A stretch of 64,000 nucleotides of DNA from Bryobacterales bacterium (GTDB lineage Bacteria > Acidobacteriota > Terriglobia > Bryobacterales > UBA6623): positions 1,927,622 through 1,991,621 of the forward strand of contig CAXXUI010000002.1 in assembly GCA_963662745.2 (NCBI GenBank), written 5' to 3'. Under the pieces are notes generated by a model. The model worked only from the letters and a program-made list of their open reading frames with translations, did no database searches and had not been told where the DNA came from. The position numbers were made by a program, and so were the translations under genes. Positions 8,713-49,540 of this stretch are shown here, piece by piece. Positions within the stretch are counted from its first letter, which is position 1, and every line of letters begins with the position of its first letter.

Positions 8713-11700
8713 ATGAGGTTCCTGACAACGGTCGTGACCGCTGTGATCGTCGCCGGCGGTTCAGCCGGTGCAGCCGAGCGAATCGATTTCAACCGAGACA
8801 TCCGACCGATCCTCTCGGAGAACTGCTTCGCCTGCCACGGCCCAGACGGCAACGCCAGGCAGGCGGGCCTCCGGCTCGACAGGCGAGAGGATGCCTTGGC
8901 TCGCGGAGTCATCCTGCCCGGAGACTCTTCGGCGAGCCGCCTCGTGCAGCGCGTCCGGCAGCAGAACCAAGCCCTGATCATGCCGCCCGTGGCCACCGAC
9001 AAGCAGCTGACCGACCGCCAGAAGCAAGTGCTCACAGAGTGGGTGGACCAAGGGGCCGAGTATCAAGAGCACTGGGCCTACATCCCGCCTCGACGGCCGC
9101 AAGTGCCGGACGATCAACACGCGGTGGACTTCCTGCTCAACAGCGCTCTTGAGCGGCAGGGGCTCAACCCAGTCGGCGAAGCGAGCCGGCGCACGCTGGC
9201 TAGGCGGGTCAGCTTCGACCTGACGGGCCTGCCCCCGGATCCGGACATCGTCGATGCCTTCGCCGACGATTCTCGGACGGATGCCTACGAGCGACTGGTA
9301 GATCGATTCCTCAAATCGCCGCACTACGGCGAGCGCATGGCCGTCCACTGGCTGGACCTGGTGCGGTATGCCGACACGACCGGCTATCACGGCGACATCC
9401 CGGTCCGCGTCTACCCGTTTCGCGATTACATCGTCCGATCGTTCAACGAGAACAAACCGTTCGACGTGATGACCCGGGAACACCTTGCCGGCGACCTGCT
9501 GGAGGATCCATCCCCATGGCAGGTCGTGGCCAGCGGCTACAACCGACTCAGCCGCATGACGAACGAGGGCGGGGCGCAGGCCAAGGAGTACCTCGCCAAG
9601 TACGCCTCGGATCGCGTCCGCAACATCTCGCAGGTTTGGCTCGGCTCGACGCTGGGCTGCGCCGAATGCCACGATCACAAGTTCGACCCGTTCCTAGCCA
9701 AGGACTTCTACTCGATGGCGGCTTTCTTCGCTGACATTGAAGAGAAGGGCGTCTTCAGCGGCAACGCCGACTGGGGCTCCGAGATTCGCATCCTCGGACA
9801 GCAAGCTCAGGACGAGTTGGACGAGGTCGAGCGCCGAATCGAGGCCGCTCGTGCAGCGGGAGAAGCACAGTCCGGGGCTGAAGAGGGCCAGCTGGCGGAC
9901 TTTGCCTCCTATCTACGCGACTCCCTGCTGAGCTGGAAGGCCTTGGAGCCATCCAGGGCGTGGAGCGATTGCGGCCATCCAGACTTTGAGCAGTGCGACC
10001 GCTTCGAGCTGGAGCTGCAGCCGGACGCTGTGGTCCGGCTGGCGCTGACTGGCAAGACGAAGCCTCGCGAGTCGATCCACAGGGTCGAGATCCCGGCGGG
10101 CGATTCCATGCTGTCGGCGCTGGCGGTCGAGCTGTTCCCCACCGGTGACTTTGACTCCTTCTATCTCAGCGAATTCGAGGTGCGCCTGCTGGGGCGGCAC
10201 GAATGGCCGCTCAGGATCGGGCTCGGCCAGTTCCTGCCCGATCGCGAGGGTCACGGTTCGATGCTCCGGGATACTGACGATGACAACTATCACTCCGGAT
10301 GGGGGGACAAGTGGGGCGAGGATTCGTCTCGCACGGCAGTCTTCGTCTTCGAGTCACCGCTGCGAACCAAGGCGGGCGAGACGCTGGAGGTCTCGCTGAT
10401 CGCCCACCCCCGCTCAAGTCTCTCGCCACCGTCGAAGTTCCGCATCCTGGGAACGGATTCGGACTTCCCGGAGCTGCCTGTGACCGGCGCATTGCGGGAG
10501 GCGGTCCTCGCTGACGGCGGCCTGAGCGCACCGCAGTCCGAAGCGCTGCGGGTCGCGTTCGACCGCATCGCCGGAAACGAGAACTGGCGCGAGCTGCGGA
10601 GGCTGGAGCGCCACAGGAAAGTGATGCTAGACCGAGCCGACGTCTCCCTGGTGGCCAAGGCCGTGAGCGACCCGCGCGAGATCCGCATCCTTCCCCGGGG
10701 CAACTGGATGGACGACTCCGGCGAGGTCGTCGAGCCGCAGGTGCCGAGCTTCTTGGGCCGGCTGCCTGACAGCGGCAGTCGGCTGACTCGTCTGGACCTC
10801 GCGGATTGGGTGACGGACGCCGCCAACCCCCTCACTGCCCGCGTCTTCGTTAACCGGCTCTGGAAGATGTTCTTCGGCACCGGCCTCTCCAAGGTCTTGG
10901 ACGACATCGGGTCGCAAGGCGAGCCCCCTGTTCACCAGGAGCTGCTGGACTGGCTGGCCGTGGAGTTCGTGGAGAGCGGCTGGGACGTGCGCCACATCGT
11001 CAAGACCTTACTGCTGTCCGAGGCGTACCGCCGCTCCAGCGATCCATCCGACGAGCTGCTGGCCGCCGACCCTTACAACCGGCTGCACGGACGGCAGGCG
11101 ATGTGGCGCTTGGAGGCTGAGTTCATTCGGGACAGCACCCTCGCCGTCAGCGGACTCCTGAATCAGAAGATGGGCGGGCCAAGCGTCAAGCCCTACCAGC
11201 CGGCCGGCTACTACAAGGAGCTGAACTTTCCGAAGCGCGTCTATGAACCGGACCGGAATTCCAACCAGTTTCGGCGGGGGCTGTACACGCACTGGCAGCG
11301 CCAGTACCTGCATCCGGCTCTGATGGCCTTTGATGCTCCGGCCCGTGAGGAGTGCGCTGCCGAGCGCGAGGTGTCGAACACGCCCTTGCAGTCGTTGGTG
11401 CTGCTGAACGATCCCAGCTTCGTGGAAGCGGCCCGGGCGTTCGCGTCCCGCGCGCTTCAGGAGGCGGGCGGCAGCCGCCGCGCCAGGATTGACTTCGCCT
11501 TCCGCGAGGCCTTCTCAAGGCTGCCGCGGGCCGCGGAGCGGGCCGTCGTGGAGAAGCTGCTGGACAGCCACGAGCACGAGTTCACGAGCGACCCCGCGCT
11601 CGCCGAGCAGTTTCTCAGTGCGGGCATCAGCCCCTTGCCGCCGAACCGTGATCACGTCGAGATGGCGGCTTGGACCGGAGTGGCGCGAGCGCTGCTCAAT

Positions 11701-11727
11701 AAGCACGAATTCCTGATGAGGTATTGA
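8713..11727 (+). CDS. PSCyt1/DUF1549/DUF1553 (PSD1) domain protein with a c-type haem motif
   Basis: CFACHGPDGNARQAGLRLD is the Planctomycete-cytochrome-C-type CxxCH. It also has DUF1549-like (PHYGERMAVHWLDLVRYADT) and DUF1553-like (CAECHDHKFDP) motifs. I prefer the ATG at 8713 (MRFLTTVVTAVIVAGGSAGA signal) over the listed GTG at 8692. Confidence 0.9.
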   Translation: MRFLTTVVTAVIVAGGSAGAAERIDFNRDIRPILSENCFACHGPDGNARQAGLRLDRREDALARGVILPGDSSASRLVQRVRQQNQALIMPPVATDKQLTDRQKQVLTEWVDQGAEYQEHWAYIPPRRPQVPDDQHAVDFLLNSALERQGLNPVGEASRRTLARRVSFDLTGLPPDPDIVDAFADDSRTDAYERLVDRFLKSPHYGERMAVHWLDLVRYADTTGYHGDIPVRVYPFRDYIVRSFNENKPFDVMTREHLAGDLLEDPSPWQVVASGYNRLSRMTNEGGAQAKEYLAKYASDRVRNISQVWLGSTLGCAECHDHKFDPFLAKDFYSMAAFFADIEEKGVFSGNADWGSEIRILGQQAQDELDEVERRIEAARAAGEAQSGAEEGQLADFASYLRDSLLSWKALEPSRAWSDCGHPDFEQCDRFELELQPDAVVRLALTGKTKPRESIHRVEIPAGDSMLSALAVELFPTGDFDSFYLSEFEVRLLGRHEWPLRIGLGQFLPDREGHGSMLRDTDDDNYHSGWGDKWGEDSSRTAVFVFESPLRTKAGETLEVSLIAHPRSSLSPPSKFRILGTDSDFPELPVTGALREAVLADGGLSAPQSEALRVAFDRIAGNENWRELRRLERHRKVMLDRADVSLVAKAVSDPREIRILPRGNWMDDSGEVVEPQVPSFLGRLPDSGSRLTRLDLADWVTDAANPLTARVFVNRLWKMFFGTGLSKVLDDIGSQGEPPVHQELLDWLAVEFVESGWDVRHIVKTLLLSEAYRRSSDPSDELLAADPYNRLHGRQAMWRLEAEFIRDSTLAVSGLLNQKMGGPSVKPYQPAGYYKELNFPKRVYEPDRNSNQFRRGLYTHWQRQYLHPALMAFDAPAREECAAEREVSNTPLQSLVLLNDPSFVEAARAFASRALQEAGGSRRARIDFAFREAFSRLPRAAERAVVEKLLDSHEHEFTSDPALAEQFLSAGISPLPPNRDHVEMAAWTGVARALLNKHEFLMRY

Positions 11728-11736
11728 GGACAAGGC

Positions 11737-13158
11737 ATGACGCATTCGAGACCTGACCCGCTCTCCACCCGCAGGGCCTTCCTGGGGCGCGCTTCGATGG
11801 GCCTCGGCTCGGTGGCGCTGGCCTCACTGCTGAAGCCCGGCCTGCTGGCCACCCGGCCCGGCGCCCCCGGCTTCCCAGACGGGTCGCCCAAGGTCAAGCG
11901 CATCATCTTCCTGTGCATGGCTGGGGGGCCGGCGCACCTCGAGCTGCTGGACTACAAGCCCGAGCTCGCCAAGCGCGATGGCGAGCCGATGCCGGAATCC
12001 TTCACGAAGGGCCAGCAGATCGCCCAGCTGCAGGGCAAGGAGCTGCGGATCCTAGGGCCCCAGCATCCGTTTCGGCGCTACGGCGCCAGCGGGCAGCACA
12101 TGAGTTCTCTCCTGCCGAACATCGGCAGCATCGCCGACGACATCTGCATCGTGCGGTCGATGCAGACGGAGCAGATCAACCATGACACAGCCCACACGTT
12201 CATGAACACGGGCTTCCGCCTGGCGGGTCGTCCGAGCATGGGGTCCTGGCTGCTTTACGGCTTGGGCAGCGAGTCCGAGGACCTGCCGGGGTTCGTGGTG
12301 CTGACTTCCGAGGGCGGCTCGCAGAGCCAGCCCATCGCCGCGCGCCAGTGGAACAGCGGCTTCCTGCCCAGCGTCTATCAGGGCGTCAAGTTCCACTCCG
12401 GCGGGGATCCAGTGAACTACGTCAGGAATCCGAGCGGCGTCTCGCGGGAGATGCAGAAGGGGCTGATCGACGCGGTGAGCGAGCTGAACGGCCTACAGCA
12501 GGGCTGGACATCGGACCCTGAGATCTCCACCCGCATCGCCCAGTACGAGCTGGCCTTCCGCATGCAGATGAGCGTGCCCGACTTGGTGGACTTCTCGAAC
12601 GAACCCGCCCACGTATTGGAGATGTACGGAACCCGAGGCGGTGACGGGACCTTCAACGCTAACTGCCTGCTGGCCCGGCGGATGGCCGAGCGCGGCGTGC
12701 GCTTCATCCACCTCTACCACCGCGGATGGGATCACCATAACGAGATCCGGACCGGACTGCCGAAGAGCTGCGGCTATGTGGACCAAGGGACGGCTGCCTT
12801 GGTGAAGGATCTCAAGCAGCGGGGCATGTTCGAGGAGACTCTCATTGTGTGGTGCGGCGAGTTCGGGCGGACGCCCATGTCGCAGGGCTCCAACCCCGAC
12901 CTCCTGGGGCGGGACCATCACATCAAGGGCTTCTCCATGTGGATGGCTGGCGGCGGCGTGAAGGGCGGAACGAGCTACGGCGCCACGGATGAGTTGGGAT
13001 ACAACGCCGTCGAGAACGTCGTCCATGTGCACGACTTGCATGCGACGATCCTCCACTTGTTCGGCATCGATCACACCAAGCTGAACTATCGTTTCCAAGG
13101 CCGGGACTTCCGCCTGACGGACGTTCACGGCAACGTCGTCCACGACATCCTCGTCTGA
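11737..13158 (+). CDS. DUF1501 domain protein (sulfatase-fold), Tat signal
   Basis: The ATG follows a GAGGA. It has the twin-arginine motif TRRAFLGRASMGLGSVALA and the characteristic GEFGRTP and GRDHH motifs. It lies 9 nt downstream of the PSD gene. Confidence 0.9.
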   Translation: MTHSRPDPLSTRRAFLGRASMGLGSVALASLLKPGLLATRPGAPGFPDGSPKVKRIIFLCMAGGPAHLELLDYKPELAKRDGEPMPESFTKGQQIAQLQGKELRILGPQHPFRRYGASGQHMSSLLPNIGSIADDICIVRSMQTEQINHDTAHTFMNTGFRLAGRPSMGSWLLYGLGSESEDLPGFVVLTSEGGSQSQPIAARQWNSGFLPSVYQGVKFHSGGDPVNYVRNPSGVSREMQKGLIDAVSELNGLQQGWTSDPEISTRIAQYELAFRMQMSVPDLVDFSNEPAHVLEMYGTRGGDGTFNANCLLARRMAERGVRFIHLYHRGWDHHNEIRTGLPKSCGYVDQGTAALVKDLKQRGMFEETLIVWCGEFGRTPMSQGSNPDLLGRDHHIKGFSMWMAGGGVKGGTSYGATDELGYNAVENVVHVHDLHATILHLFGIDHTKLNYRFQGRDFRLTDVHGNVVHDILV

Positions 13159-19862: not shown

Positions 19863-21688
19863 GGGTGTCTGCTCCTCGCAGATGGTCTGCCGAGAAGAGT
19901 ACCATCTTACCAAGATCTCGCATCGACGGGCGGGCAGCTCGAGTGCATCTGTGGAGGCTACTCCTGGGAGGTCTTGCAGATCAGCGTGACAGTGACGGCT
20001 GCCTAGACAATCCATGGTGTCGCAGATTCGTGTGCGCTGCTGGCGGCTGTTCGGGGGGCGGACGAGTCGCAAGTTGGCGCTTGTGATCCGGCCCGCTGCC
20101 GACGCCAGCGCTCGATACGGGAGGCGGTCAGTTTCGGCAGTTTCCTGTTAGCTTCCGATCGGGCTTGCAGCGCACTCTCGCCGGCTTTGATCGCTTCGTC
20201 GAGGTGAGGGCGCTGGCGTGAGCCGTGACCAGGCCCGTACAGCGGTTGGGGCATGTACTCGCTCTCGCTCTCGGCACCTCAGACGTCCTTACATCGAGCC
20301 GCCGAGGACACCTCTGAGCGGGCTGCGGACGCACATGGGAACGGATCAGCGCCAGACGGTGCCAGCACCACGGAGGGAGTAGCTGTCCCAAGCGGGCCCG
20401 CCCCGTACTGCTCGTCGGCCATGCCGTCTTTCCGCCCTCGCGACTTGGTCCGTCGAGCGGTGGCTACCGGTGCGGGAACTCGCTCTCGTCCCGCCCACGC
20501 CACAACTGTGCATGGCTTGTTGCCGGGTGCATCCTCGATCGGTAGCGTCGGGCTCCCGCCGGCCAGTAGGGCTCGCTCTCACGGCTGCCTGTCAGCGGAG
20601 AAATGGCGGTCTCCACAGACGGACGCGTCCAGCCAAGGCCGGAAGCCCATTCATCTTGGTGGCACACGTGTAGCGAAGTCTGTGTCGCGGCTCTCGGAAG
20701 GGGCGCGTCCACTGGACTGATTCAGAGCCAGAGGCACCGTAGAGTTGAGGGCGGTGCGACTCAGACAAGGGCGAGTTGTGCGCGCCTTCGAAGTCTCGCA
20801 GGCCGTCCTTGGCGAATGTGAGTTGCCTCTCGATGTGGGACTGGTGTATGTTCGCGCGGTAGACCTAGGCCCTGCTCACGCGCGGGCCTTCGTCCCAGCC
20901 GTGGCGCCGGAGACACCTTCAGGCCACAGTCCCTGAGGGGCCCAAACCTCGCCGGCACAACCTCCAGTACACGCCACATGTGTTGCCTCGTGGCGCGGCT
21001 GGACCCTCAAGGAAGCATCTCGGCTCGTGACCGACGCGCCCAAGCCGAGGTCGCCGTTGAAAATTGCGGTGCGGACGATGACGTGCTCGCGGTCGGCCAG
21101 CCCGTGCCGCCCGCTGACTCTTGCCGACGCTTACCAGCGATTGATTCGTGAACGCCGGTGGGCCCTAGCATCACGAGCCCCCGGTGGGGCGGTTCAGGCT
21201 ACCTTGACCGGTGGTCTTGGTCTCTCAGCTCGCAGGTGAAGAGCTGCCTGATCAGGTGATGCCAGCTCACTCAGCGACTAGGCATGCCAAAGAAGTCAGA
21301 CTTCGTTACAAGTGTGCCACCACGAAGACTGGGTCCTCCACCTCGGCGGGACGCCGGCTGCTCCCGGGACGGTCTCACCGAAGCCAAGATCGCCCGGCAG
21401 GACCGAATTGCCAGCGCTGGAGCGAGTCAGGACCCACCGGTCATCCGTGCGCCGGGCCATTCAGAACAATGGCATGGGGGGAAGTGCGTCCGCATCCGCT
21501 CTCGCAGCCACCGGTCCCAAGCCGAATATCAGAGAGTGGCACAACGGCCATCGCCAACGCCCACTCTCGGATGGGCTCGGTTGCGATGTCCAACCGATGC
21601 GCGGTGGCGGTACTGTCTCTTACAGCCCAGCAGGAGCATGCGTTAGTAGGCGGTCCAGCCCCGTTCTCGATCGCTAGGTGTAACAATT

Positions 21689-21728
21689 CCTGGACCCAGA
21701 CTCCCCATATGACTGCAGTCGGACCAGG
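21689..21728 (-). terminator. imperfect inverted repeat downstream of the 917-aa gene, possible terminator or island edge
   Basis: CCTGGACCCAGACT (21689-21702) faces AGTCGGACCAGG (21717-21728). On the minus-strand RNA the hairpin is followed by AAUUGUUA. It lies about 80 nt after the stop, at the GC transition. Confidence 0.3.
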
Positions 21729-21806
21729 AGCAGACCCCGGCATCTATAGGTGCGTACTAACTAAGCGTTCGAAGTCGCGACGATGGTTATTCCGAGACAC
21801 GTTCGT

Positions 21807-24560
21807 CTACTTGACTGGTCTGACTCCACCCCTCCTGCCCAGTCCATATCCGACCCGATACACATCGGGGATGTCAACACGTCCGTCCTTCATACGTCTG
21901 AACAAGTTGAGTTCTTCAAGATCTCTTCGAACACCGGACTCGGCGAGATTGAGGTGACGAGGAGGCAGCTTTGTGTGGCCCATATTCACTTCGTCCTGGA
22001 GTCTGCTAATGACGTCGTTCTTCCTCCATTTCTGTTCGATCTCACCGAACTCACATGGAACTACGAGTCCAGCCAGAGGAACTAGGAGCCGATTCACCCA
22101 AGGATAATCTTCACAAATCTCCAGAATTCGTATCTTGGACGCTTTCTGCACTCCCCGCTTAATGCTCTCGAAATGTAGGGCGTTATGGTGGTCAGGATAG
22201 CGACGAGAGGTGTCGACAGCAGCGATTTTCAATGCGGCAAGGAACGACCGTGGGCTCACTTCTTGTTGTGCATCTCCAAGGTGATTGGGGATCCATGTGT
22301 AAGGGAACCCATGTTTGGGACTAGCGCCCATCCATGGCCCGGTGAGGACATGAAATTGGTTCCGTCGAAAATCAGGGTCAGTCGCTGGGGTCAGAGGAAT
22401 TTGAGACACTTCGTCCCCTACTCTTCGTGGTGTTGACCACCGTACCCTCTGAAGCAACGAACGAACCTGATCTCCGTAGGATCCATTAGCGAGTGTGTGC
22501 CAAAGCAATCCGTACAAGTCTCGCCGTGGCCAAGATAACTCAACAGCCGACGAGAGGACTTTATAAGAATCGGGAAAATCAGCAACTTCTTCTTCAATAA
22601 CTTGGTCTGACCGAAGGAATACCTTCACTCTCAGTCGTCGATAGGAGCGAATATCGCGAGTATGCATTAGCAACCCACGAATGAATGAAAGGACATCTAT
22701 CCATTTGTTTGAGCATAGATCCAAAGCATCGAACAGTACGAGATGAAACTTTCCCTCTCTGTCTAACTGGATATCTCTATCGTATAGCAGCTTGTCAATT
22801 CGCTTAGGATTTTGCACTACGAACTCTACTCGTTCAGACCAAGAACTGAACTTCCTGAGTGGACCATCGGCAGTCGCCAAGTGCTGTGCGTGAACCGTTC
22901 GCCAGATTTGCCTCGGTTTCACACCGCCTCTCGCCAATGCTTGGAGCTCATCCGGTGCGGGATAGCAGTCAGGATCCGCGGTCTCACCGAATCCAGTACA
23001 TACTTCTGAATTCGCATCAAGCTGAAATCTTCTATCTAGCTGAATGATCAATGATCGGATTCCAGAATCTTGTAGGGCAGTCCACCAAAAAGTCTTTCCC
23101 GATCCGCGCATTCCCGTGACCAGTGTTGTGTTTGGGTGCAGTGCACGGCGATGGGATGGTGGTAGGTATACTCTGCTTGGCGTGAGTGTTTCCCCATGGC
23201 TAGTTTCTTCCGGAAGAGCGATCAATGCCTTTCGGAAAATCTTCGTCTGGTCAGCCTTGTTGGTGTCCTCTGATTCTGTGCTGCTCCGGATACGACGATC
23301 GAACCACTTCAGGAAGTGTGCATAAGCCTGAATAACAGGTCCGTGAGCAGTTTGGCCGAGAGTGCGCAAGAACTCATCTGTCGTGAGACCACGATTCCAG
23401 AAGATCACCGACGGATCGTGTGGTGCTTCTTCAGAATCCAGATTGTAAGACATAATACTTGATTCATCGTCAGTTGCCAGTATAGAATCGTAGAGTTCAT
23501 CGCGAAATAAATTCCATGAGTGCTCCCTAAATCTTTCCAGATAGCCCGGATTATCGGGACCAGGTGTAAGTGCAGAGACAATCGAGAGTCTATCCCTAAT
23601 ATGTCGTGCTAAGCCGTGATCTCTCCAATGGCTGAACAAGAGTTTATAGTCAATCCAAGTGCTCTGGGAATCAACTGCAAACAGCAACACATCTGCGTCT
23701 AAATCTGTCACAGCTGTAGCAGCGACATCATGGAGCCCGCTCCGACTCTCAATGATGACGAAATCTGGTTTCAACTTCTCCTCCAAGCTGTCCAGAAGGC
23801 GGCTCACTCGACTTCTCCAAGGATCTACTTGGGTATCCATATAAACACGCCCAAGCTTAGCCAGATACTTGCCTGTATTACGGCCATGTGCCGGAACCAC
23901 CTTCACATCTCCTTGCATCTCATGGGCCCACCTCGGCGAAGCAATCATATCCTCAATGACGTGGTGACCCTGTGCGACCAGCTCTTCAACAAACCAGTCG
24001 ACTATTCCCAATTCAGGATGCGACCTCTTGTCGAGAATTGCCGATCCAATGCCTGGCGACTCGAGGTCCAAATCAACGATCACAACATCATGTCCTCGCT
24101 GCGCAAGATACCATGCTAGGACGGCAGCCGTAGTACTTCGACCAACGCCTCCCTTGATAGAATAGAGGACATATCTCGCAGGTCCAGTGCTCTTTCGTTC
24201 GCTGTGAACCGTCGACCACTCTTCGCCAACAAGAAGGCAGTCAATCCAGTAGCAGTTAGAATTGATCTTGACTCTCGTATCTCGAAATTCTTCAAGCAAC
24301 TCGTCTTCGACCCACAGTACTGGCCCGTCATTCAAGCCACTGTGACGTCCTAGAGCCTCTTGTAGTGTGTTCGCCAAGTGCTCCACCGTCATGCATACTG
24401 ACTTGTCAGCTCGGAACCGCTCCGAAATCGAGATGCTGATTCGTCCAAAGAGATCGCAAACGAAGTGGATGTCGGGTGAATCTTCTCGCCAATCAGTATG
24501 ATGGATAGCATCCAACACACGATTGCGTGCATCGTCGAACAAGATCCGCTTGTTTGTCAT
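21807..24560 (-). CDS. 917-aa double P-loop NTPase: unknown N-domain + KGGVGR-variant ParA/MinD-like ATPase + second P-loop NTPase + C-terminal domain
   Basis: The ATG at 24558-24560 is preceded by GGAAGGAAG. Walker A no. 1 is SIKGGVGRST (nt 24132-24155), with DLDLESPG and DFVIIESRSG. Walker A no. 2 is GMRGSGKT (nt 23091-23114), with Walker-B-like HLVLFDALD (aa 606-614). Codon usage is AT-rich. Confidence 0.85.
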   Translation of the reverse strand: MTNKRILFDDARNRVLDAIHHTDWREDSPDIHFVCDLFGRISISISERFRADKSVCMTVEHLANTLQEALGRHSGLNDGPVLWVEDELLEEFRDTRVKINSNCYWIDCLLVGEEWSTVHSERKSTGPARYVLYSIKGGVGRSTTAAVLAWYLAQRGHDVVIVDLDLESPGIGSAILDKRSHPELGIVDWFVEELVAQGHHVIEDMIASPRWAHEMQGDVKVVPAHGRNTGKYLAKLGRVYMDTQVDPWRSRVSRLLDSLEEKLKPDFVIIESRSGLHDVAATAVTDLDADVLLFAVDSQSTWIDYKLLFSHWRDHGLARHIRDRLSIVSALTPGPDNPGYLERFREHSWNLFRDELYDSILATDDESSIMSYNLDSEEAPHDPSVIFWNRGLTTDEFLRTLGQTAHGPVIQAYAHFLKWFDRRIRSSTESEDTNKADQTKIFRKALIALPEETSHGETLTPSRVYLPPSHRRALHPNTTLVTGMRGSGKTFWWTALQDSGIRSLIIQLDRRFQLDANSEVCTGFGETADPDCYPAPDELQALARGGVKPRQIWRTVHAQHLATADGPLRKFSSWSERVEFVVQNPKRIDKLLYDRDIQLDREGKFHLVLFDALDLCSNKWIDVLSFIRGLLMHTRDIRSYRRLRVKVFLRSDQVIEEEVADFPDSYKVLSSAVELSWPRRDLYGLLWHTLANGSYGDQVRSLLQRVRWSTPRRVGDEVSQIPLTPATDPDFRRNQFHVLTGPWMGASPKHGFPYTWIPNHLGDAQQEVSPRSFLAALKIAAVDTSRRYPDHHNALHFESIKRGVQKASKIRILEICEDYPWVNRLLVPLAGLVVPCEFGEIEQKWRKNDVISRLQDEVNMGHTKLPPRHLNLAESGVRRDLEELNLFRRMKDGRVDIPDVYRVGYGLGRRGGVRPVK

Positions 24561-25228
24561 AGTCTTCCTTCCAGTTTTGCTTTGCGAATCATTCTTCGGA
24601 TACCTTGAGCTGCACTACGATGTTTCTTGACGATCTCCTCGGTAGTGCATCTACTATGCACGTACCGATCGTTCGTTGACCAATCTATGAATGGACTTCC
24701 CTTAGGAAGTCGACGCAGAAACCAACTTCTTCTTCGTCCATGCGACAACTTCTTAAACTCCTTCCAGAGTATATTTACATGCTCGCGAATGGGAGACTTA
24801 TTCAATCTTACTAATGCCAGTTTCAGCCCGCATTCGGCACTGAATCCATAGAGTTGGTCTGCATTACTCAAACGCTTGCAACTAAGCAACAACTCTGCAT
24901 CGTTCCAATGGCGCAGATGCGCGTCTTCGAAGTCATCAACTCTAGTCACGAAGTGCACTTCTCCTCTGTCGTGAATTGTGAGATTCTGCTCCTTCGCTGG
25001 ATAGTTCGAGCCCAAGTCAATGTTGTCACTAGGAGCACTGGACAACCTCACTAAACCGCTGTTGATACCAGGGATATTGGGCTGAACACACATAGGGATG
25101 TCCGATATGCACCGAAAGGCTTGGACGTACTCCTCCCCTGTCTTGCTGGAGGTTGATTCGGGGATCTTGCCAAGGTGCAGTTGCCCACCGCAGCCGAGGC
25201 CCTCTTTGATTGCCGTTCCGCGGCGCAA
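24557..25228 (-). CDS. hypothetical protein with a HEPN-like C-terminal helical domain (tentative)
   Basis: The stop overlaps the downstream start in ATGA (24557-24560). The C-terminal AELLLSCKRLSNADQLYGFSAECGLKLAL...DRYVHSRCTTEEIVKKHRSAAQGIRRMI resembles the PF05168-type HEPN pattern from memory. The listed start is a TTG at 25228. An ATG at 25091-25093 (MCVQPN..., 178 aa) is an alternative. Confidence 0.7.
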   Translation of the reverse strand: MRRGTAIKEGLGCGGQLHLGKIPESTSSKTGEEYVQAFRCISDIPMCVQPNIPGINSGLVRLSSAPSDNIDLGSNYPAKEQNLTIHDRGEVHFVTRVDDFEDAHLRHWNDAELLLSCKRLSNADQLYGFSAECGLKLALVRLNKSPIREHVNILWKEFKKLSHGRRRSWFLRRLPKGSPFIDWSTNDRYVHSRCTTEEIVKKHRSAAQGIRRMIRKAKLEGRL

Positions 25229-26347
25229 GAGGCAGATTGCAATGTATGTCTCGCAGTGGCAAGGTGCCGTGCGCTAGATCGACCAAGGCAAGATTTGCTG
25301 CTCCTCTCTCGCTTGAGGCGTGTCCTAGCGGCGGCAGCAGGCGGCCCTGTAGCAGTCGTGCCGAGCCGCTGTAGGTGCCGGGTGCAGCCGGTGCGACTTC
25401 GCTTGCTGACCTGAATAGTGCCCTATCACACCCTCGGCAGCACTCGCCGGGTTCTTGCGTTGCCCTCGTGCTTCTCACTGTGTTCAGCATATCGGAGTGG
25501 TTTCGGGGGACCCGATCAGGTCCTCATAGGATAGCGGTTCCAACTTAGCTGTATCGCTCATGCCTCGGGGCGGGAGGGCAGGGCAACTGAACGCCGGTCG
25601 CGGAGTGCCGGAGAGCCGCGAACGCCTCCCCGTACCGCATCCCAGGCCGGCGCTTGGACAAGGCTAGGTCCGCACTCAGAGACGGCGCGACCTGAGCCTA
25701 GCGGGTCCGGGTGGTCGGACATATCAGCGAACGACGTGTCGAGTGGACACGGTGTAGGCCGGAAACGCGCCCGCTGTCGTAGAGTCCTGAGACTCATGTC
25801 TGTGGGTCGTCGTAGCGTCTTGAACCCCGGAGGAGGCATATCCGCGTCTAGCGTGCCAGGCGGCCCGACGTATCTCTACGCTGAGGCGGTGAGCACTGTT
25901 CTGACCCGGCTGCGGGCGTACGTGACCGCTGGGCTGCGTGAGGCAGTGCCAGCACCAGCGATAGGGTCGACCTTGCAACCGAATCCGATCAGTTGTGCTC
26001 GCCTGCGATGCCGTCATATACACCTCGTGGCGTGGTCCCATGGAGCGGTGGCAGGTGGTGCAGGGATCGTCTCGTTGGAGCCTCGCCATAACTCTGTACG
26101 GCCCACCAGCTGGGCAGGGCCGCGCTCATGGTCGGGAACACATTCATCCGTGTGCCAAGAAACAGACAGCGAGGCATACGGGGCTCGCTACGCGCTACAC
26201 CGCAGGTAAGCGTCTGAGTTGCTCGGCCACGACAGATCCCTCACTGGCAGATCCACTACTCGCTTGGTACGCGTGCTGCGCCGCTAGTTCTCCCGTCAGC
26301 GACGCCGTCTGCCGTTCTCCGTCCGACCATCGGCAGCCGCCATCCAG

Positions 26348-28072
26348 TTGTGGGCATCACGAACCGCAAGCGAGCCAAGGACCGTTGAACGCAGCGTGTC
26401 TCGACCCGGACGGCGCAAGTACAATGCTGGTTTGGTAAGGCCTCTATCAGCGGCCCTCGTGCTGGCGTGGTGCGCGAGCGCTTGGGGGCAGGGCCCAGAG
26501 TTCCAGCTCCGTCTCGACTATGCCACGCAGCGAGCGGTCGACCGCGTTCTCGCCAAGGTGGATGCGGGGAGTGATGTCTGGACGGGTGAGCAGGACTTTG
26601 AGGAGATCGACGCTCGCCTGAAGAGCATCTCCGGAAGTCTGAAGCAGGATCCCGGCCATGTCGACGGGCTCCGCGAGATCACAGCGGACTTTGCCGGGCT
26701 CACGCTCGCGGAGTTCAAGATCGTCAACACGCGGCGCACCTTGGGCTCGCAGAATCGCGTCGATGTCGATGTTGAGTGGGAACTTGGGGGCAGGTCCGAA
26801 GACGGCCGGCTGCTCTCGCTCGCTGGTTCGGGTCTCATGACTTGGGATCGCTCCGCCGGCGGGTGGGAGCTGGTCGGGTTCAGTCCGTCCCGGGCGCGAC
26901 GTCTGCGAGGCGGCGAGCGGCACGGATTCGCGGAGGTCACCGACGCCGTCTTCGGGGGCGTGGACTCGTTCCGGACCCAGTTGGCCTTCGGCATCGATCA
27001 CTGGCGGGACTCGATGGACGCCGCGTTGGGCGTGAATGTCTATGGACACCAAGGGCTGGCGCTGGGCGACTATGACGGAGATGGACTCGACGACCTCTAC
27101 GTCAGCCAGCCCGGCGGCTTGCCGAACCGGCTCTATCGCAACAACGGAGACGGAACATTCTCGGATGCCACCCGCAGCGCTGGGCTCGGGATTCTCGACG
27201 ACACGTCGATGGCGCTGTTCGCGGATGTGGACAACGACTCGCGCCAGGACCTGATCCTGATTGGCTCGACACCGATGCTGTTCCGGCATGCCGGCGACGC
27301 CGGTTACGCCTACGATCCAGACTCGGGTCTGGATGTGGGTGACGACAGGGCAGCGATGTTTACCGGTGCCGCCATGGCTGACTACGACCGGGACGGCGAC
27401 TTGGACCTGTACGTGTGCGCCTACGATTTCTGGCAGTCCGGTTCCGACTACGACGCCCCGACTCCGTACTTTGACGCCACCAACGGCCCCGCCAACCTGC
27501 TGTTCCGCAACGACGGTGCCGGGCGCTTCGAGGAAGTGTCGGCGGGAGCCGGCCTGCAGCCGACCAACGACCGCTTCAGCTTCGCCGCCGCATGGGGCGA
27601 CTTCGACGACGACTCGGATCCTGACCTCTATGTCGCCAACGACTTCGGACGGAACAACCTCTATGTCAACAACGGCGACGGCACATTCTCCGACCGTGCT
27701 GCTGAGCTGGGCGTCGAAGACTTGGGCGCAGGCATGTCGGCGGCATGGGGCGACTACGACTCGGACGGAGATCTGGACCTGTACACGGCGAACATGTGGT
27801 CTTCGGCCGGGCTGCGGCTGACCGGCTCCGACCAATTCGCCGCCGTTGCTCCCGACGAGGGGCGGCGCGGCAGCTTCCGCCGTCAGGCCCAAGGGAACTC
27901 GTTGTTCCGCAACGACGGCGAGGCGGGTTTTGTTGATGTCAGCGTCGAGGCCGGAGTGCGCAAGGGGCGGTGGGCTTGGGCCTCTGACTTCGCCGACCTG
28001 GACGGGGACGGGCTGCTTGATCTCTTCGTGCAGAATGGCTACATCACTGGCGAGAGGCTCGACGACCTTTGA
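26348..28072 (+). CDS. FG-GAP/VCBS-repeat protein, N-terminal part of a CRTAC1/ASPIC-like protein (ends at an in-frame TGA)
   Basis: Repeated GDYDGDGLDDLYV / NRLYRNNGDGTFSD / GDFDDDSDPDLYVAND / NNLYVNNGDGTFSD motifs are present. The listed start is a TTG and uncertain. The same frame continues into 28094-30103 after one TGA. Confidence 0.85.
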   Translation: MWASRTASEPRTVERSVSRPGRRKYNAGLVRPLSAALVLAWCASAWGQGPEFQLRLDYATQRAVDRVLAKVDAGSDVWTGEQDFEEIDARLKSISGSLKQDPGHVDGLREITADFAGLTLAEFKIVNTRRTLGSQNRVDVDVEWELGGRSEDGRLLSLAGSGLMTWDRSAGGWELVGFSPSRARRLRGGERHGFAEVTDAVFGGVDSFRTQLAFGIDHWRDSMDAALGVNVYGHQGLALGDYDGDGLDDLYVSQPGGLPNRLYRNNGDGTFSDATRSAGLGILDDTSMALFADVDNDSRQDLILIGSTPMLFRHAGDAGYAYDPDSGLDVGDDRAAMFTGAAMADYDRDGDLDLYVCAYDFWQSGSDYDAPTPYFDATNGPANLLFRNDGAGRFEEVSAGAGLQPTNDRFSFAAAWGDFDDDSDPDLYVANDFGRNNLYVNNGDGTFSDRAAELGVEDLGAGMSAAWGDYDSDGDLDLYTANMWSSAGLRLTGSDQFAAVAPDEGRRGSFRRQAQGNSLFRNDGEAGFVDVSVEAGVRKGRWAWASDFADLDGDGLLDLFVQNGYITGERLDDL

Positions 28073-45141: not shown

Positions 45142-46431
45142 CTATCCATGATGCCCCAGACGGCGGACGGGCGCAAGCGGCGCCGGGCCCGGCCGCGAGG
45201 CCTCGATGCGCAGCAGGCGGTTGTATTTCGCCAGTCTTTCGGAGCGGGTGACGGAGCCGACCTTGATGTGACCCGCGCCGCTTGCCACGGTCAAGTCGGC
45301 GAGAAAGGAGTCTTCGGTTTCCCCCGACCGCGCCGACACCACGCTGGCGAAGCCTGCCGACTCGGCCTCGTCCACCACCTGCAGCGTCTCCGTGAGCGTG
45401 CCGATCTGATTCATCTTGACCAGCACGGCGTTGGCGGCGCGCCGCCGGATCGCCCGCCTCAGCCGGCGTGGGTTGGTGCAGAGCAGGTCGTCGCCGACTA
45501 GGGCGACGCGCTCCCCGAGGGCGGCGCAGGCCGTTCGCCAGCCCTCCCAGTCGTCCTCCGCCAAGGGGTCCTCAATCGAGACGATCGGGTAGTCCCGCAC
45601 CCATCGGTCGTAGAGGGAGACCATGGCGTCCGAGTCGAGCGAGCGCCCTTCGCTGCGCAGCCGGTAGGCCCCATCGAGGAAGAAGTGCGTCGCTGCCGCG
45701 TCGATCGCGATCGAGACTTGGGTGCCTGGGCGGAAGCCGGCGGCCTCGATGGCTTGGACCATGTACTCGAGGGCGCTCTCGTTGGACGGCAGGCGCGGGC
45801 CCCAACCGCCTTCATCCGCCACTCCGTCAGGAGCGACGCCGTCGTGTTGAAGGATGTCCAGCATGCGGCGGTGGACGGTTGCCGCCGCCTCAAGCGCGGC
45901 GGCGAACGTGGCGAATCCGTGCGGCACGGCCAGGAAGTCCTGAAACTCGATCTGCCGCCCGGCGTGCAGGCCGCCGGACAGGATGTTCACCATCGGGAGT
46001 GGGATCTTGGCCCGTCTGCCGCCGCACAGCGCCTGCCAGAGCGGGAGGCCCGCCTGCTTGGCCCGGGCGCGAGCGATGGCGCAGGAAAGGCCCAGAATCG
46101 CGTTGGCGCCCAGCCTCGACTTGTCGGGAGTGCCGTCCAGCTCGATCATGAGGTTGTCAGCAAGCTGCTGGTCGGTGGCCGGAACGCCCCGCAGCGCGGC
46201 GGCCAAGGGCCCGTTCACGTTGGCCACGGCCCGGCTGACAGCTGTGCCGTCGTAGCCGCCGCCGGCCCCGTCGCGCAGTTCCTTGGCCTCGTGCCGTCCG
46301 GTCGACGCACCGGAGGGCACTTGAGCCGTGGCGGAAGTGCCGTCAGCCAGCGCCACGCCAGCCTCCAGTGTCGGATTCCCGCGGGAATCGAGGATCTGCA
46401 TCGCCCAAGCTCGCTGGATGGCGACGCTCAC
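45142..46431 (-). CDS. eno: enolase (phosphopyruvate hydratase)
   Basis: It has ILDSRGNPTLEAGVALADGTSATAQVPSGASTGRHEAKELRDG and a later SGETEDSFLADLTVA motif. It has a GTG start. Confidence 0.93.
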   Translation of the reverse strand: MSVAIQRAWAMQILDSRGNPTLEAGVALADGTSATAQVPSGASTGRHEAKELRDGAGGGYDGTAVSRAVANVNGPLAAALRGVPATDQQLADNLMIELDGTPDKSRLGANAILGLSCAIARARAKQAGLPLWQALCGGRRAKIPLPMVNILSGGLHAGRQIEFQDFLAVPHGFATFAAALEAAATVHRRMLDILQHDGVAPDGVADEGGWGPRLPSNESALEYMVQAIEAAGFRPGTQVSIAIDAAATHFFLDGAYRLRSEGRSLDSDAMVSLYDRWVRDYPIVSIEDPLAEDDWEGWRTACAALGERVALVGDDLLCTNPRRLRRAIRRRAANAVLVKMNQIGTLTETLQVVDEAESAGFASVVSARSGETEDSFLADLTVASGAGHIKVGSVTRSERLAKYNRLLRIEASRPGPAPLAPVRRLGHHG

Positions 46432-46474
46432 GGACCCAGCCTAGCAGCCGCCGGGCGTTTGGAGTCTGGGCCGG

Positions 46475-46647
46475 CTAGCGCTAGATCGTAGTTAACTCAT
46501 TCCTGTAGCTGCGAGTTGAACTTGGCCTAGCCGAATCTGTGAGAGGCCCCGGGGCTCTGGACCAAGTCTGGAAAATGACCGCAGCGGTGCGGACGGGTTA
46601 GTGGCCAGCGGCGTCTTAGGCGTGCTCTAGCCCGCCGTCTGCGGGGG
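46475..46647. repeat. left terminal inverted repeat of the IS
   Basis: My manual alignment with the reverse complement of 49348-49520 gives 10 mismatches in the first 156 nt, no indels, and 2 mismatches in the next 17 nt. Confidence 0.9.
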
Positions 46648-46700
46648 CTAGCGCTGACTCGCACTTGACACCGGGGGGTTGGATCGTATAGAAGAGTGGT

Positions 46701-49130
46701 GTGCGGGTTGGGCTGCGCATGCTGAAGCCGGCCACGGTGGAGTGGTTGCGCCGGGCACTGTCGAAGGGCACGTTGACGCGTGCCCAGGTGGCACGGGGAC
46801 TGTGTCGGCAAGACGGCTGGCGGAACGCCCGCGGGAGGCTGTGTGCGGCTTCGGCGCGCAAGGGCCTGCCAGCGCTGGCGGCGGAGCTGGGGCTGCCCAT
46901 GCCGCCGGTGCTGCGCCGGACGGGGGGCTGCCGGCGGCGCTCGCGGCGCCGGGCGCGGCGCAGCGTCCCGCCGCTGCGGCTGCAGTGCTCGCTGCCGGAG
47001 CTGGGAGAGGTCAGCCTGCGCCTGGCCGACACGGCCCAGCTGCGGCGGCAGTACGGGGATCTGCTGACGGCGGAACATCCGCTGGGGCGCGGGCGGGCAC
47101 CGGGCTGCCGGCTGGTGTACGGCATCCGGGCCGGGGGCCGGGAGCTGGGAGTGGTCAGCTTCGTGGCCGCGCCGATGCGCTTGGGTCCGCGCGACCAGCA
47201 TCTGGGCTGGGACGAGCGCACCCGCCGCCGGAACCTGCCCCGGCTGGTCTCCAACGACCGTTTCCTGGTGCGGCCCGGCGTGGTGGTCCACAACCTCGCC
47301 AGCCACGTGCTGGGCCTGGCGCTGCGGCGCTTGAGCAGCGACTGGGAGCGGCTGCACGGCAGCGCCCCGGTGGCGGTGGAGACCTGCGTCGAGCAGCGGC
47401 GACGGGCAACTTGCTACCAGGCGGCGGGCTTTGAGCGCCTGGGGGAGACGGAGGGCCTGCCGTGGGGCGCCCAGCAGCCCACGCGGGCGCAGCGCGCGCA
47501 GCCGGACTTCCGCGAGCCGGAGCGCCATCCCAAGCAGGTCTGGGTCAAGCCGCTGGTGCCCGATTGGGAGCGTGTGCTGCGGGAGAAGGCGCGGCTGGTG
47601 CTGGGTAGCTTCCCGCGGCTGGACTTCGACAGCGAGGAGGCGCACTGGTCGGCGCGCGAGTTCGAGCGCTCGGACCTGCCGGACCGGCGCCTGCGGGAGC
47701 GGCTCAAGGCCATGGGCGGGGCCTGGGAGCAGCGCCCGGGCGAGTGCCTGCCGGCCATCTTCCCGCGCGGCAAGGACCAGCAGGCCGCCTACCGCTTCCT
47801 GCGCAATGAGAGGGTTTCCATGCAGCACATTCTGGCGCCGCACCGGGAGGCCATGGTGGACCGCTGCCAGCTGCTGGCGGGCACCGTGCTGCTGGTGCAG
47901 GACACGACCACGCTGAACTACACCGGGCTGGGCGAGTGCACCAGCGGCCTGGGGCCGCTCAAGAAGCGCAGCGAGAGTGCGCGCGGGCTGCACGTGCATG
48001 CCTCGGTGGCCTACACGGAGGGCCGCCGGCCGCTGGGGGTGAGCGACTTGGAAGTCTGGGCCCGGCCGCTGGAGGAGCCGCCGGACGAGTGCGAGCGGGA
48101 GAGCCAGCGCTGGTTGCGGGGGCTGCGGCAGGGTTTCGAGCTGAGCCGGGCCTGCCCGGGCCAGCGCATCGTGGTGGCGGGCGACCGCGAGAGCGACATC
48201 TACGCGCTGTTCCGGGAGCGGGAGCAGCGCGAGCAGGCCGGCGAAGAGGACGTGGAGCTGCTGGTGCGCGTGCACCTGGGCCGGCAGCGCAAGGTCAAGG
48301 TGTGGGACCCGAGCCTGCGGTCGCTGATGCTGCGCTCGATCCCCATGCAGGCCGACTTCCAGCAGCGGGTGCGCTTCCGGCGCACCTTCCGGCTGAGCTC
48401 GCAGGGTGGGCAGCGGGCCCGCCAGCGGCGCAAGGTGAAGACCCAGGTGAGCATCGGGCCGGTCGAGCTGCAGCCGCCGGAGGCGTGCCGTCAGCGGGGC
48501 GAAGCGGGTGTGGAGGCCTGGCTGGTGCATGTCGAGCAGATCGATACGCGGCCGGGGGAGGATCCGCTGGAGTGGTTCCTGCTGAGCACGGCGGGCGGGT
48601 TGAGCAAGCGCTGGGCGAAGCGCATCGTGGGCTGGTATGAAGCCAGGTGGTCGATAGAAGAGCTGTTCAAAGTTTTGAAAAGTGGTGCGCGCATCCAGGA
48701 CCGCCGCCTGCGCACGGTCGCTGCGCTGGGCAAGTGCCTGGCGTTCGACGCCGTCACGGCCTGGCAGGTCTGCTCGCTGGCGCGCTACGCGCGCGACGCG
48801 CCGCAGACGCCGGTGGACGCCGTGTTGACCTGGGCCGAGATCACGGCGTTGTGGATCCACGTGCAGGCACAGGAGCTGTGGCGGCCGAGCGAGCGGGGGC
48901 GCGCGCCACCGCGCGACATCCGGACTTGGGTGGTGTGGCTGGCGATGACGTCCGGCTTCCGGCCCTCGAAGCGCCGGCCCCTGCCGGGCAACGCCGTGCT
49001 CTGGCGGGCCTGCGTCGTGTTGGGGCACTGGGTGCAGCACCAGCAGGCCCAGCCGGGGCTCATGCCGAGCCAGCCCGTCTTCGCGGAGCCGCCGCACGCA
49101 GCCGGGCCGCAGGCCAGCGAGTCTCCGTAG
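46701..49130 (+). CDS. IS4-family DDE transposase (Tn5-like) with DUF4338-like N-terminal domain
   Basis: The C-terminal two-thirds has VLLVQDTTTLNY (D), IVVAGDRESDIY (D) and WYEARWSIEELFKVLKSG (the Y-(2)-R-(3)-E-(6)-K-type IS4 signature). The N-terminal ~330 aa contains LGPRDQHLGWDERTRRRNLPRLVSNDRFLV...NLASHVLGLALRRLSSDWERLHG...VETCVE...ATCYQAAGFERLGETEG, which I recall as DUF4338-like. It starts at GTG 46701 or ATG 46719. Confidence 0.9.
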   Translation: MRVGLRMLKPATVEWLRRALSKGTLTRAQVARGLCRQDGWRNARGRLCAASARKGLPALAAELGLPMPPVLRRTGGCRRRSRRRARRSVPPLRLQCSLPELGEVSLRLADTAQLRRQYGDLLTAEHPLGRGRAPGCRLVYGIRAGGRELGVVSFVAAPMRLGPRDQHLGWDERTRRRNLPRLVSNDRFLVRPGVVVHNLASHVLGLALRRLSSDWERLHGSAPVAVETCVEQRRRATCYQAAGFERLGETEGLPWGAQQPTRAQRAQPDFREPERHPKQVWVKPLVPDWERVLREKARLVLGSFPRLDFDSEEAHWSAREFERSDLPDRRLRERLKAMGGAWEQRPGECLPAIFPRGKDQQAAYRFLRNERVSMQHILAPHREAMVDRCQLLAGTVLLVQDTTTLNYTGLGECTSGLGPLKKRSESARGLHVHASVAYTEGRRPLGVSDLEVWARPLEEPPDECERESQRWLRGLRQGFELSRACPGQRIVVAGDRESDIYALFREREQREQAGEEDVELLVRVHLGRQRKVKVWDPSLRSLMLRSIPMQADFQQRVRFRRTFRLSSQGGQRARQRRKVKTQVSIGPVELQPPEACRQRGEAGVEAWLVHVEQIDTRPGEDPLEWFLLSTAGGLSKRWAKRIVGWYEARWSIEELFKVLKSGARIQDRRLRTVAALGKCLAFDAVTAWQVCSLARYARDAPQTPVDAVLTWAEITALWIHVQAQELWRPSERGRAPPRDIRTWVVWLAMTSGFRPSKRRPLPGNAVLWRACVVLGHWVQHQQAQPGLMPSQPVFAEPPHAAGPQASESP

Positions 49131-49347
49131 CGCCCCGCCGGAGAGCTCGGGCCCGGCGCGACAGCTCGCGGCTCACCACTGGGCCCCTCAGCGGGGGGCC
49201 CAGCCCGGAGCCCGTGCGTCTGCAGCCGCTGCGGGGTGGGCCAGTCTGCTGGCTGAACCCCGCACCGCCCCTTGGCGGGGGGGCAGTCGCCGGCCAGGGG
49301 AGGCGCTGGCGCCCCAGCGACAGCGGCCGCCCACTTTCCCGTCCCAT

Positions 49348-49520
49348 CCCCCGCACACGGCGGCCTAGAGCACGCCTAAGACGCCGCTGGCCACTAACCA
49401 GTCCGCACCACTGCGGCCATCCTCCAGACTTGGCCCAGCGCCCCGAGGCCTCTCACAGATTCGGCTAGACCAAGTTCAACTCGCAGCTGCAGGAATGAGT
49501 TAACTACGATCTAGCGCTAG
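49348..49520. repeat. right terminal inverted repeat of the IS
   Basis: This is the reverse-complement partner of 46475-46647 (see the left IR). Confidence 0.9.
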
Positions 49521-49540
49521 CTGGGCCGGTATGCACTACT

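Follow-up and report, generated by a model that had tools for sequence, protein, structure and literature searches.

PDC-M28 is a phage-defence candidate in the PADLOC database (PADLOC-DB), where it corresponds to cassette CAS_00115 in supplementary table 8 of Payne et al. 2024 (10.1101/2024.01.29.577857), and it was drawn from genes lying within BREX, DISARM or type I restriction-modification systems. Here we compare with it a locus in a 64,000-nucleotide stretch of Bryobacterales DNA (contig CAXXUI010000002.1, positions 1,927,622 to 1,991,621), which we call the window. A single open reading frame (ORF) on the minus strand, at 21807–24560 of the window, encodes a polypeptide of 917 residues that, judged by profile matches, is a fusion of genes B and C of the three-gene PDC-M28. 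We refer to it as gene BC; gene A lies on the ORF upstream of it.

Other described systems resemble parts of this locus. Lactococcal AbiV is a dimeric HEPN ribonuclease (RNase) that degrades ribosomal RNA in vitro and belongs to a toxin–antitoxin system of type III (Zhu et al. 2024, 10.1101/2024.05.05.592566); its control is by an RNA antitoxin, not by ATPases. Dyads of a HEPN gene and a ParA/Soj-like ATPase gene (PMC3710099) show the same pairing as the window, but their HEPN belongs to another family (MAE_18760) and they lack a third, STAND-like nucleoside triphosphatase (NTPase). MinD/ParA-like domains joined to STAND proteins (AP-ATPase/NACHT) were noted in conflict systems by Kaur et al. 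2020 (PMC7159879), and the combination of a ParA-like with a STAND domain is common to those fusions and BC (compare proteins P0073 and P0079 below), whereas the partner in BC is an Sll1717-type NTPase without repeat sensors. Finally, BC shares with the SIMIBI ATPases ParA, MinD, Soj and FlhG the fold, the signature Lys, the P-loop Ser/Thr and the Asp-rich switch I strand, but differs from them by an Arg in the P-loop, a Glu in Walker B and an extra N-terminal domain, and it has no ParB, MinE or MinC partner.

The BC polypeptide

The PADLOC profile PDC-M28B matched aa 6–427 of BC (E = 3.3e-127, profile positions 3–435 of 438) and PDC-M28C matched aa 438–916 (E = 2.5e-160, profile positions 5–479 of 480). 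Because PADLOC places the B and C profiles on one ORF and the A profile on the ORF upstream, the polypeptide is, by these profile assignments, a fusion of B and C. The A, B and C families, their order and their orientation are alike in the window and in PDC-M28, and each profile is covered over its full length. The difference is that the PADLOC models and most relatives keep B and C separate, whereas the window has them in one chain, so that the A-B-C order is retained as two genes (A and fused BC) and not three.

This reading frame had been singled out in an earlier note made from the letters alone, which described a KGGVGR-variant ParA/MinD ATPase joined to a second P-loop NTPase in the range 22491–24179. 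That range spans only aa 128–690 of the 917-residue BC. A position check on the ORF recovered every quoted motif where the note had placed it. All are on the minus strand: the deviant Walker A KGGVGRST (aa 136–143, nt 24132–24155; K136 at 24153–24155, R141 at 24138–24140); DLDLESPG (aa 163–170); DFVIIESRSG, the Walker B/switch II strand (aa 266–275, 23736–23765; E271 at 23748–23750); the canonical Walker A GMRGSGKT (aa 483–490, nt 23091–23114; K489 at 23094–23096), 347 residues past the first P-loop; the Walker B HLVLFDALD (aa 606–614, 22719–22745), for which the family consensus is LVLFDGLDR; and the segment LSWPRRDLYGLLWHTL (aa 675–690, nt 22491–22538). In an alignment of 32 homologues of 43–65% identity, K136, G137, G138, G140, S142, T143, D163, E271 and G275 were invariant in the B part, and G483, G486, G488, K489, T490, D611 and D614 in the C part; R141 was conserved in at least 90%.

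The KGGVGR-variant ATPase domain occupies aa 127–313 (23622–24182, minus strand). It passed the NCBIfam model NF047398, 'KGGVGR-motif variant AAA ATPase', with 169.1 bits against a cut-off of 90 (E = 1.3e-49) and full coverage (profile positions 2–190 of 190), a model that is limited to aa 127–313 and takes in neither the N-terminal domain nor the C half. The Pfam families CbiA, ParA and AAA_31 also exceeded their gathering scores. With these scores and the conserved residues, the motifs cannot be put down to chance. An AlphaFold2 model of BC was built from the 32-sequence alignment (mean predicted local distance difference test score, pLDDT, 79). Compared with the Protein Data Bank (PDB) by Foldseek, it matched FlhG, MinD, Soj, FleN and ParA with E = 1e-5 to 5e-4 and template modelling (TM) scores of 0.66–0.73 relative to the target, and NifH was also among the structural matches to the first nucleotide-binding domain. 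The predicted structure and the Pfam matches thus support the earlier note's view that the first P-loop sits in a genuine ParA/MinD fold. A sequence search of the PDB with BC matched only a short ParA P-loop segment. Ahead of this domain, the predicted secondary structure shows an N-terminal alpha/beta domain at about aa 6–110 (24231–24545, minus strand), which falls within the PDC-M28B profile and could be assigned to no family.

Within the P-loop, R141 replaces the usual Lys while the signature Lys, K136, is kept. A Walker A was recognised in 98 homologues that contain B, and each of them reads KGGxGR[ST], never with K; nine others gave no motif match. In these sequences the Arg P-loop is a family trait that is not peculiar to the fusion. 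E271 is invariant where MinD and ParA have Asp, and in the AlphaFold2 model it lies at the end of the beta strand 267–273. Its assignment to Walker B was based on this position after the strand and on a match, made by inspection, to the MinD DxxG pattern. The earlier note had read a retained signature Lys together with Arg in place of the P-loop Lys and Glu at the Walker B Asp position; both substitutions are fixed across the family.

The C part (aa 438–916, 21813–23249, minus strand) consists of a P-loop NTPase, related to Sll1717 and resembling Orc1/Cdc6, and a conserved helical region at its C-terminal end. The earlier note had named two families for proteins with these features. Both names exist and the KGGVGR model was passed, but on the NCBIfam model NF047389, 'P-loop ATPase, Sll1717 family', the window scored 49.4 bits, under the cut-off of 75, over profile positions 163–361 of 454. 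The relationship was nevertheless recovered through an intermediate: a profile of 34 C-type proteins aligned by hhalign end to end with P0072 (probability 100%, E = 4.7e-44, 439 columns), which itself passes the Sll1717 model at 89 bits. Because of this alignment, the C half is best described from its sequence as a divergent relative of the Sll1717-type P-loop ATPases, and both family names given in the earlier note were in essence correct. Archaeal Orc1/Cdc6 structures (1w5t, 1fnn, 2qby, 1w5s) covered 450–508 columns of the C half in Foldseek, with E of about 1e-4 and TM scores of only 0.33–0.45. These matches, together with the Sll1717 homology, agree with the earlier description of the second half as STAND-like. 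A GxxxxGK[ST] Walker A and an hhhhDxxD Walker B are both present and invariant (GMRGSGKT, LVLFDALD). No Pfam domain was detected in the C half. A NACHT assignment was tried and rejected, since hhalign against a NACHT protein covered the P-loop only, with a probability of 18%.

BC aa 760–771 (22248–22283) lie within a highly conserved C-terminal block, GFPYTWIPNHLxDA...VSPRSF, in which W756, P758, H760, D763, R771, S772 and F773 are invariant in the fused-homologue alignment; we take this block to be loosely reminiscent of the winged-helix His/MHD sensor motifs of STAND NTPases. The C module also occurs in another conflict-system architecture, P0124 (1328 aa). This protein joins a C-type, Sll1717-like domain with a NACHT domain and with a calcineurin-like phosphoesterase that resembles the NCBIfam 'DS9_1 anti-phage phosphoesterase'.

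BLASTP found no detectable similarity between the two halves of BC (best E = 2.9). The P-loop region of the C part is thus no degenerate copy of the one in the B part, and the independence of the two NTPases asserted in the earlier note stands; its reading of the domains was largely correct. The halves meet at aa 428–437 (23250–23279, minus strand) in a direct end-to-start join without an extra domain; pLDDT falls below 50 at aa 428–433.

Fused and split forms among relatives

The earlier note had considered the fused architecture unusual, and this was not upheld. A protein search that favoured close relatives gave full-length fusions of 909–946 aa in at least 60 clusters (90% identity). We also took the 79 best species-level genome loci and traced their reading frames; 21 were fused, 57 were split and one was without B. 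Among the best 150 matches of an exhaustive search through 50%-identity representatives, 110 were C-only, 25 were B-only and two were clear fusions, and P0086, slightly under the coverage cut-off, is one more. In distant proteins the KGGVGR domain is also fused to other domains: it stands N-terminal to NACHT in P0073, to TIR, NB-ARC and TPR in an FxSxx-COOH-system protein (P0079) and to CATASP in P0076, while P0075 (903 aa, 22% identical) combines it with a bona fide Sll1717 domain. Because of these fused clusters, fused loci and other NTPase fusions, the architecture is not unusual, and MinD/ParA–STAND fusions are on record in PMC7159879.

Most relatives have B and C as two genes with coupled translation. 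Gene calls on split loci give A of 140–143 aa, B of 431–435 aa and C of 483 aa, and in most of the 57 the start of C and the stop of B share 4 nt. A C-only homologue begins near aa 433 of BC and a B-only homologue stops near aa 434. Given these end points and the ATGA overlap, a one-base change could create the direct join seen in the window. A single base change at the overlap would thus suffice as the origin of the fusion, and would fix B and C at a 1:1 stoichiometry.

Taxa with fused forms include Gemmatimonadota, Acidobacteriota, Rhodothermales, Chloroflexota, Bacillota, Myxococcales and Thauera, and one fused homologue, WP_420463148.1, is named 'KGGVGR-motif variant AAA ATPase' by RefSeq. 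The nearest relatives of the window (65% and 56–57% identity) are fused. In a neighbour-joining tree built from the C halves, fused forms group together, and the Fitch minimum for the fused and split states is two changes. Because only two state changes are needed, the fusion appears from this tree to be heritable and old, and not a set of scattered assembly errors.

Many related loci come from long-read metagenome-assembled genomes, including Candidatus Palauibacter, Entotheonella, Vicinamibacterales, Binatia and Latescibacterota. Marine sponges typically harbour such taxa as symbionts. Within communities of this kind the module, at 50–57% identity across phyla, may be moving horizontally.

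Gene A, the low-GC island and the neighbourhood of related loci

A homologue of gene A is directly upstream in 71 of the 79 related loci. In the window, the mechanical ORF upstream of BC runs from 24557 to 25228, with a TTG at 25228, and is overlong for gene A. The PADLOC profile PDC-M28A matched only aa 98–222 of it (E = 4.6e-37), homology to gene A in the related loci likewise starts at about residue 98, and gene A homologues open with M..PADFxDAH. The probable start is a GTG at 24949–24947, 11 nt past GAGGAG. From the onset of homology, the starts of the homologues and this GTG with its GAGGAG, we placed gene A (PDC-M28A) at 24557–24949 on the minus strand, encoding 130 aa. Its TGA and the ATG of BC share 4 nt (ATGA), and AAGGAAG lies 5' of the BC start.

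The AlphaFold2 model of gene A is all-helical (pLDDT 82), and its best eight PDB matches by Foldseek are all HEPN proteins, 1wol, 2q00, 1o3u, 4nqf, 1ufb and 2hsb among them. It shares with lactococcal AbiV the structural neighbours reported for that protein (2HSB, 1UFB, 3O10). The invariant R95 (24665–24667, minus strand) takes the place of the Arg in the HEPN motif Rx4-6H. The His of this motif, which in lactococcal AbiV closes 91-RNHKSKH-97, is not conserved in A. A second invariant residue, H57 (24779–24781, minus strand), at the start of helix 3 past the helix 2 loop, is a candidate alternative catalytic His. The AbiV and AF0298 HEPN families retain the Rx4-6H Arg, often lack its His and have another, conserved His upstream, close to where helices 2 and 3 connect (PMC3710099); the pattern of R95, H57 and a variable His at +6 in gene A fits this description. 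We conclude that gene A is probably, but not proven to be, an AbiV-like HEPN protein. A 140-aa A homologue encoded upstream of the fused gene in Candidatus Palauibacter (locus L064, NZ_OZ244149.1), WP_420463149.1, is named 'SAM-dependent methyltransferase' in RefSeq, which for an all-helical, HEPN-like protein is probably a misannotation.

Genes A and BC and the upstream region are the only contents of a low-GC (guanine plus cytosine) island at 21780–25250. In a composition profile and in GC steps of 250 nt this 3.5-kb island has about 0.50 GC against about 0.66 in its flanks, that is, 50% in a 66% GC genome. Gene GC is also under flank GC in most related loci, by a median of 5 points compared with 16 points in the window. 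The window contains no tRNA, and at the island edges we found no convincing direct repeats. Searches of the island flanks gave no Pfam-recognisable ORFs, no mobility genes and no Rfam match, and no promoter or terminator consensus scored above shuffled expectation. The PDC-M28 identity, the upstream HEPN-like gene A and the island had all been overlooked in the earlier note.

Of the 79 related loci, 13 have DISARM genes (DrmD, DrmMI, DrmA) no more than 8 kb away, an independent recovery of the association reported for PDC-M28. In four of these loci (L003, L068, L074, L079) the module sits between DISARM genes; in L003 (46–17422), for instance, DrmD and DrmMI are upstream and DrmA is downstream of A-B-C. 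A ThsB-like TIR gene (PADLOC ThsB/PDC-M50B) is directly downstream of BC in 9 of the 21 fused loci (L002, L003, L004, L006, L007, L008, L013, L041 and L064, at about 10,750–11,750 in each), as against one of the 57 split loci. Usually a PDC-M50A-like gene of 146 aa, beginning at the BC stop, stands between the two. The TIR gene may be part of a system that travels along with the fused clade, or may extend its function; it is absent from the window. Split A-B-C modules were found on two conjugative plasmids, pSurvcare220 of Enterobacter bugandensis (NZ_CP039454.1, 137389–140719) and p85s3p of Burkholderia glumae. When the flanking ORFs were clustered, no fourth component common to most loci emerged, and a phage genome collection contained no homologues.

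Proposed role and alternative explanations

Taken together, we interpret the locus as a two-gene form (A and fused BC) of PDC-M28, carried on a recently acquired 3.5-kb island and acting as a nucleoside triphosphate-gated HEPN abortive-infection RNase system, a composite reading on which we are evenly divided. Its more general part, a role in defence or abortive infection, we regard as somewhat more probable, whereas the specific mechanism is tentative and on balance rather doubtful. In this mechanism the AbiV-like HEPN protein encoded by gene A would be the presumed RNase effector. HEPN RNases are dimers with a composite site. The C module would sense an infection cue and shift its nucleotide or oligomeric state, and the KGGVGR B module would be a dimerisation latch that depends on nucleotide and hydrolyses it slowly. 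B and C together would hold or assemble HEPN dimers such that RNA cleavage and growth arrest follow only on infection. Replacement of the P-loop Lys by Arg classically keeps nucleotide binding and cripples hydrolysis; RecA K72R, for example, loses most of its hydrolysis. Strict selection on the signature Lys, on the P-loop Ser/Thr, on the Asp of switch I and on the acidic Walker B residue speaks for binding of nucleotide by the KGGVGR domain. Extended to the whole family, the proposal would be that a dedicated KGGVGR latch, which recurs with STAND-type NTPases (of Sll1717 type here, NACHT and NB-ARC elsewhere), gates jointly with the Sll1717-type NTPase a non-canonical AbiV-like HEPN RNase with an alternative His, and so defines a new class of abortive infection; this extension is speculative and we think it is more probably wrong than right.

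Several observations weigh against this interpretation. PDC-M28 is itself only a predicted defence candidate, by 'guilt by embedding' alone, and we found no paper that names PDC-M28, KGGVGR or Sll1717 in its main text. The window contains no neighbouring defence or mobility genes, so the module is solitary. For gene A, the HEPN matches in Foldseek were weak (E = 0.16–0.84, probability 0.66–0.99, TM 0.42–0.61), and a PDB sequence search returned only one chance match, a cyclophilin. Pfam HEPN_AbiV (PF18728) matched 15 of 33 A homologues below threshold, at best with 24.1 bits against the gathering score of 27.1, and did not match the window's own gene A. Furthermore, the canonical HEPN His at +6 from R95 is a Cys in the window and a His in only 17 of 33 homologues. 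The MinD/ParA-like domains of conflict systems have, in addition, been predicted to be inactive (Kaur et al. 2020, PMC7159879).

That prediction, made for conflict proteins such as VMAP and AP-ATPases, bears most directly on the possibility that the KGGVGR domain is a catalytically dead pseudo-ATPase whose only role is to link the STAND-like NTPase to the effector, as scaffold or adaptor. Its Arg and Glu would then be marks of lost function and not of a changed chemistry. Substitution of both the P-loop Lys and the Walker B Asp is what such a loss would look like, and a RecA K72R-type loss of hydrolysis would agree with it. A dead domain should however have drifted, yet the nine B-part residues listed above, from K136 to G275, are invariant, and Arg is found in every Walker A recovered, fused and split, at 35–65% identity. 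Because the site residues are invariant, the KGGVGR site appears to be still under selection, at least for nucleotide binding, and we consider a dead domain possible but distinctly less probable than not. Somewhat less probable still is a toxin–antitoxin or addiction module, as opposed to a dedicated phage sensor, in which the HEPN protein is the toxin and the ParA-like ATPase, with C, is the antitoxin, acting by a nucleotide-dependent conformational change or by phosphorylation. The same was proposed for the MAE_18760-family HEPN and ParA/Soj dyads by Anantharaman et al. 2013 (PMC3710099), lactococcal AbiV is the toxin of a toxin–antitoxin system of type III (10.1101/2024.05.05.592566), the module is present on conjugative plasmids, and A and BC are tightly coupled through their 4-nt overlap. 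Nevertheless, a 900-aa antitoxin with two ATPases would be far over-elaborate for neutralisation, and the DISARM embedding and TIR adjacency of related loci favour defence. The two readings are in any case compatible, since many toxin–antitoxin modules are abortive-infection systems.

Two further explanations we regard as very improbable. A ParA-type system for DNA partition or positioning would account for the ParA/MinD fold and signature Lys of B and for the occurrence on plasmids, but the partner gene is HEPN-like and not ParB-like (the ORF list and PADLOC profiles gave no ParB-like or MinE-like gene in the window), relatives are embedded in DISARM, the copy in the window lies on a chromosome, alone in its low-GC island, and BC falls far short of the cut-offs of all partition and MinD equivalog models (ParA_partition, for example, 28 bits against 180). 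An assembly or sequencing frameshift that joined two genes would need only a one-base error at the 4-nt B/C overlap found in most split loci, and the many related loci from long-read assemblies invite the suspicion. Against it stand the full-length fusions in at least 60 independent clusters, the grouping of the 21 fused loci on the C-half tree and the fused state of the window's closest relatives.

The fusion itself is common and its components had already been catalogued: PDC-M28, KGGVGR and Sll1717 are named in databases, and we found no study of them. A literature search for a 'ParA-like ATPase' with HEPN and anti-phage terms returned nothing relevant, and a cold-seep study that validated some PDC candidates did not include M28. 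If the module is a defence system, a ParA/MinD-fold ATPase would join the set of immune switches, and its natural Lys-to-Arg and Asp-to-Glu variant P-loop site would offer a chemistry that can be probed by back-mutation. If the proposed mechanism is true, an ATPase fold of the partition and cytoskeletal type would have been recruited as an immune switch, and the fused and split forms would be a natural experiment in stoichiometry. The fused form may be under-counted where detection rules look for three separate genes, as the PADLOC models suggest they do, since a fused protein is presumably assignable to one profile only. The split version on conjugative plasmids of cultured Enterobacter and Burkholderia makes these proposals directly testable.

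Two high-GC stretches, 20100–21780 (1.7 kb) and 25250–26350 (1.1 kb), border the island, with no Pfam-recognisable ORF and no Rfam match in either. In the first of these flanks lies an imperfect 58-nt inverted repeat (20625–20682 and 21297–21354), 78% complementary. Elsewhere, at 46001–50000 of the window, GC rises to 0.70–0.72 compared with the usual value of about 0.66.

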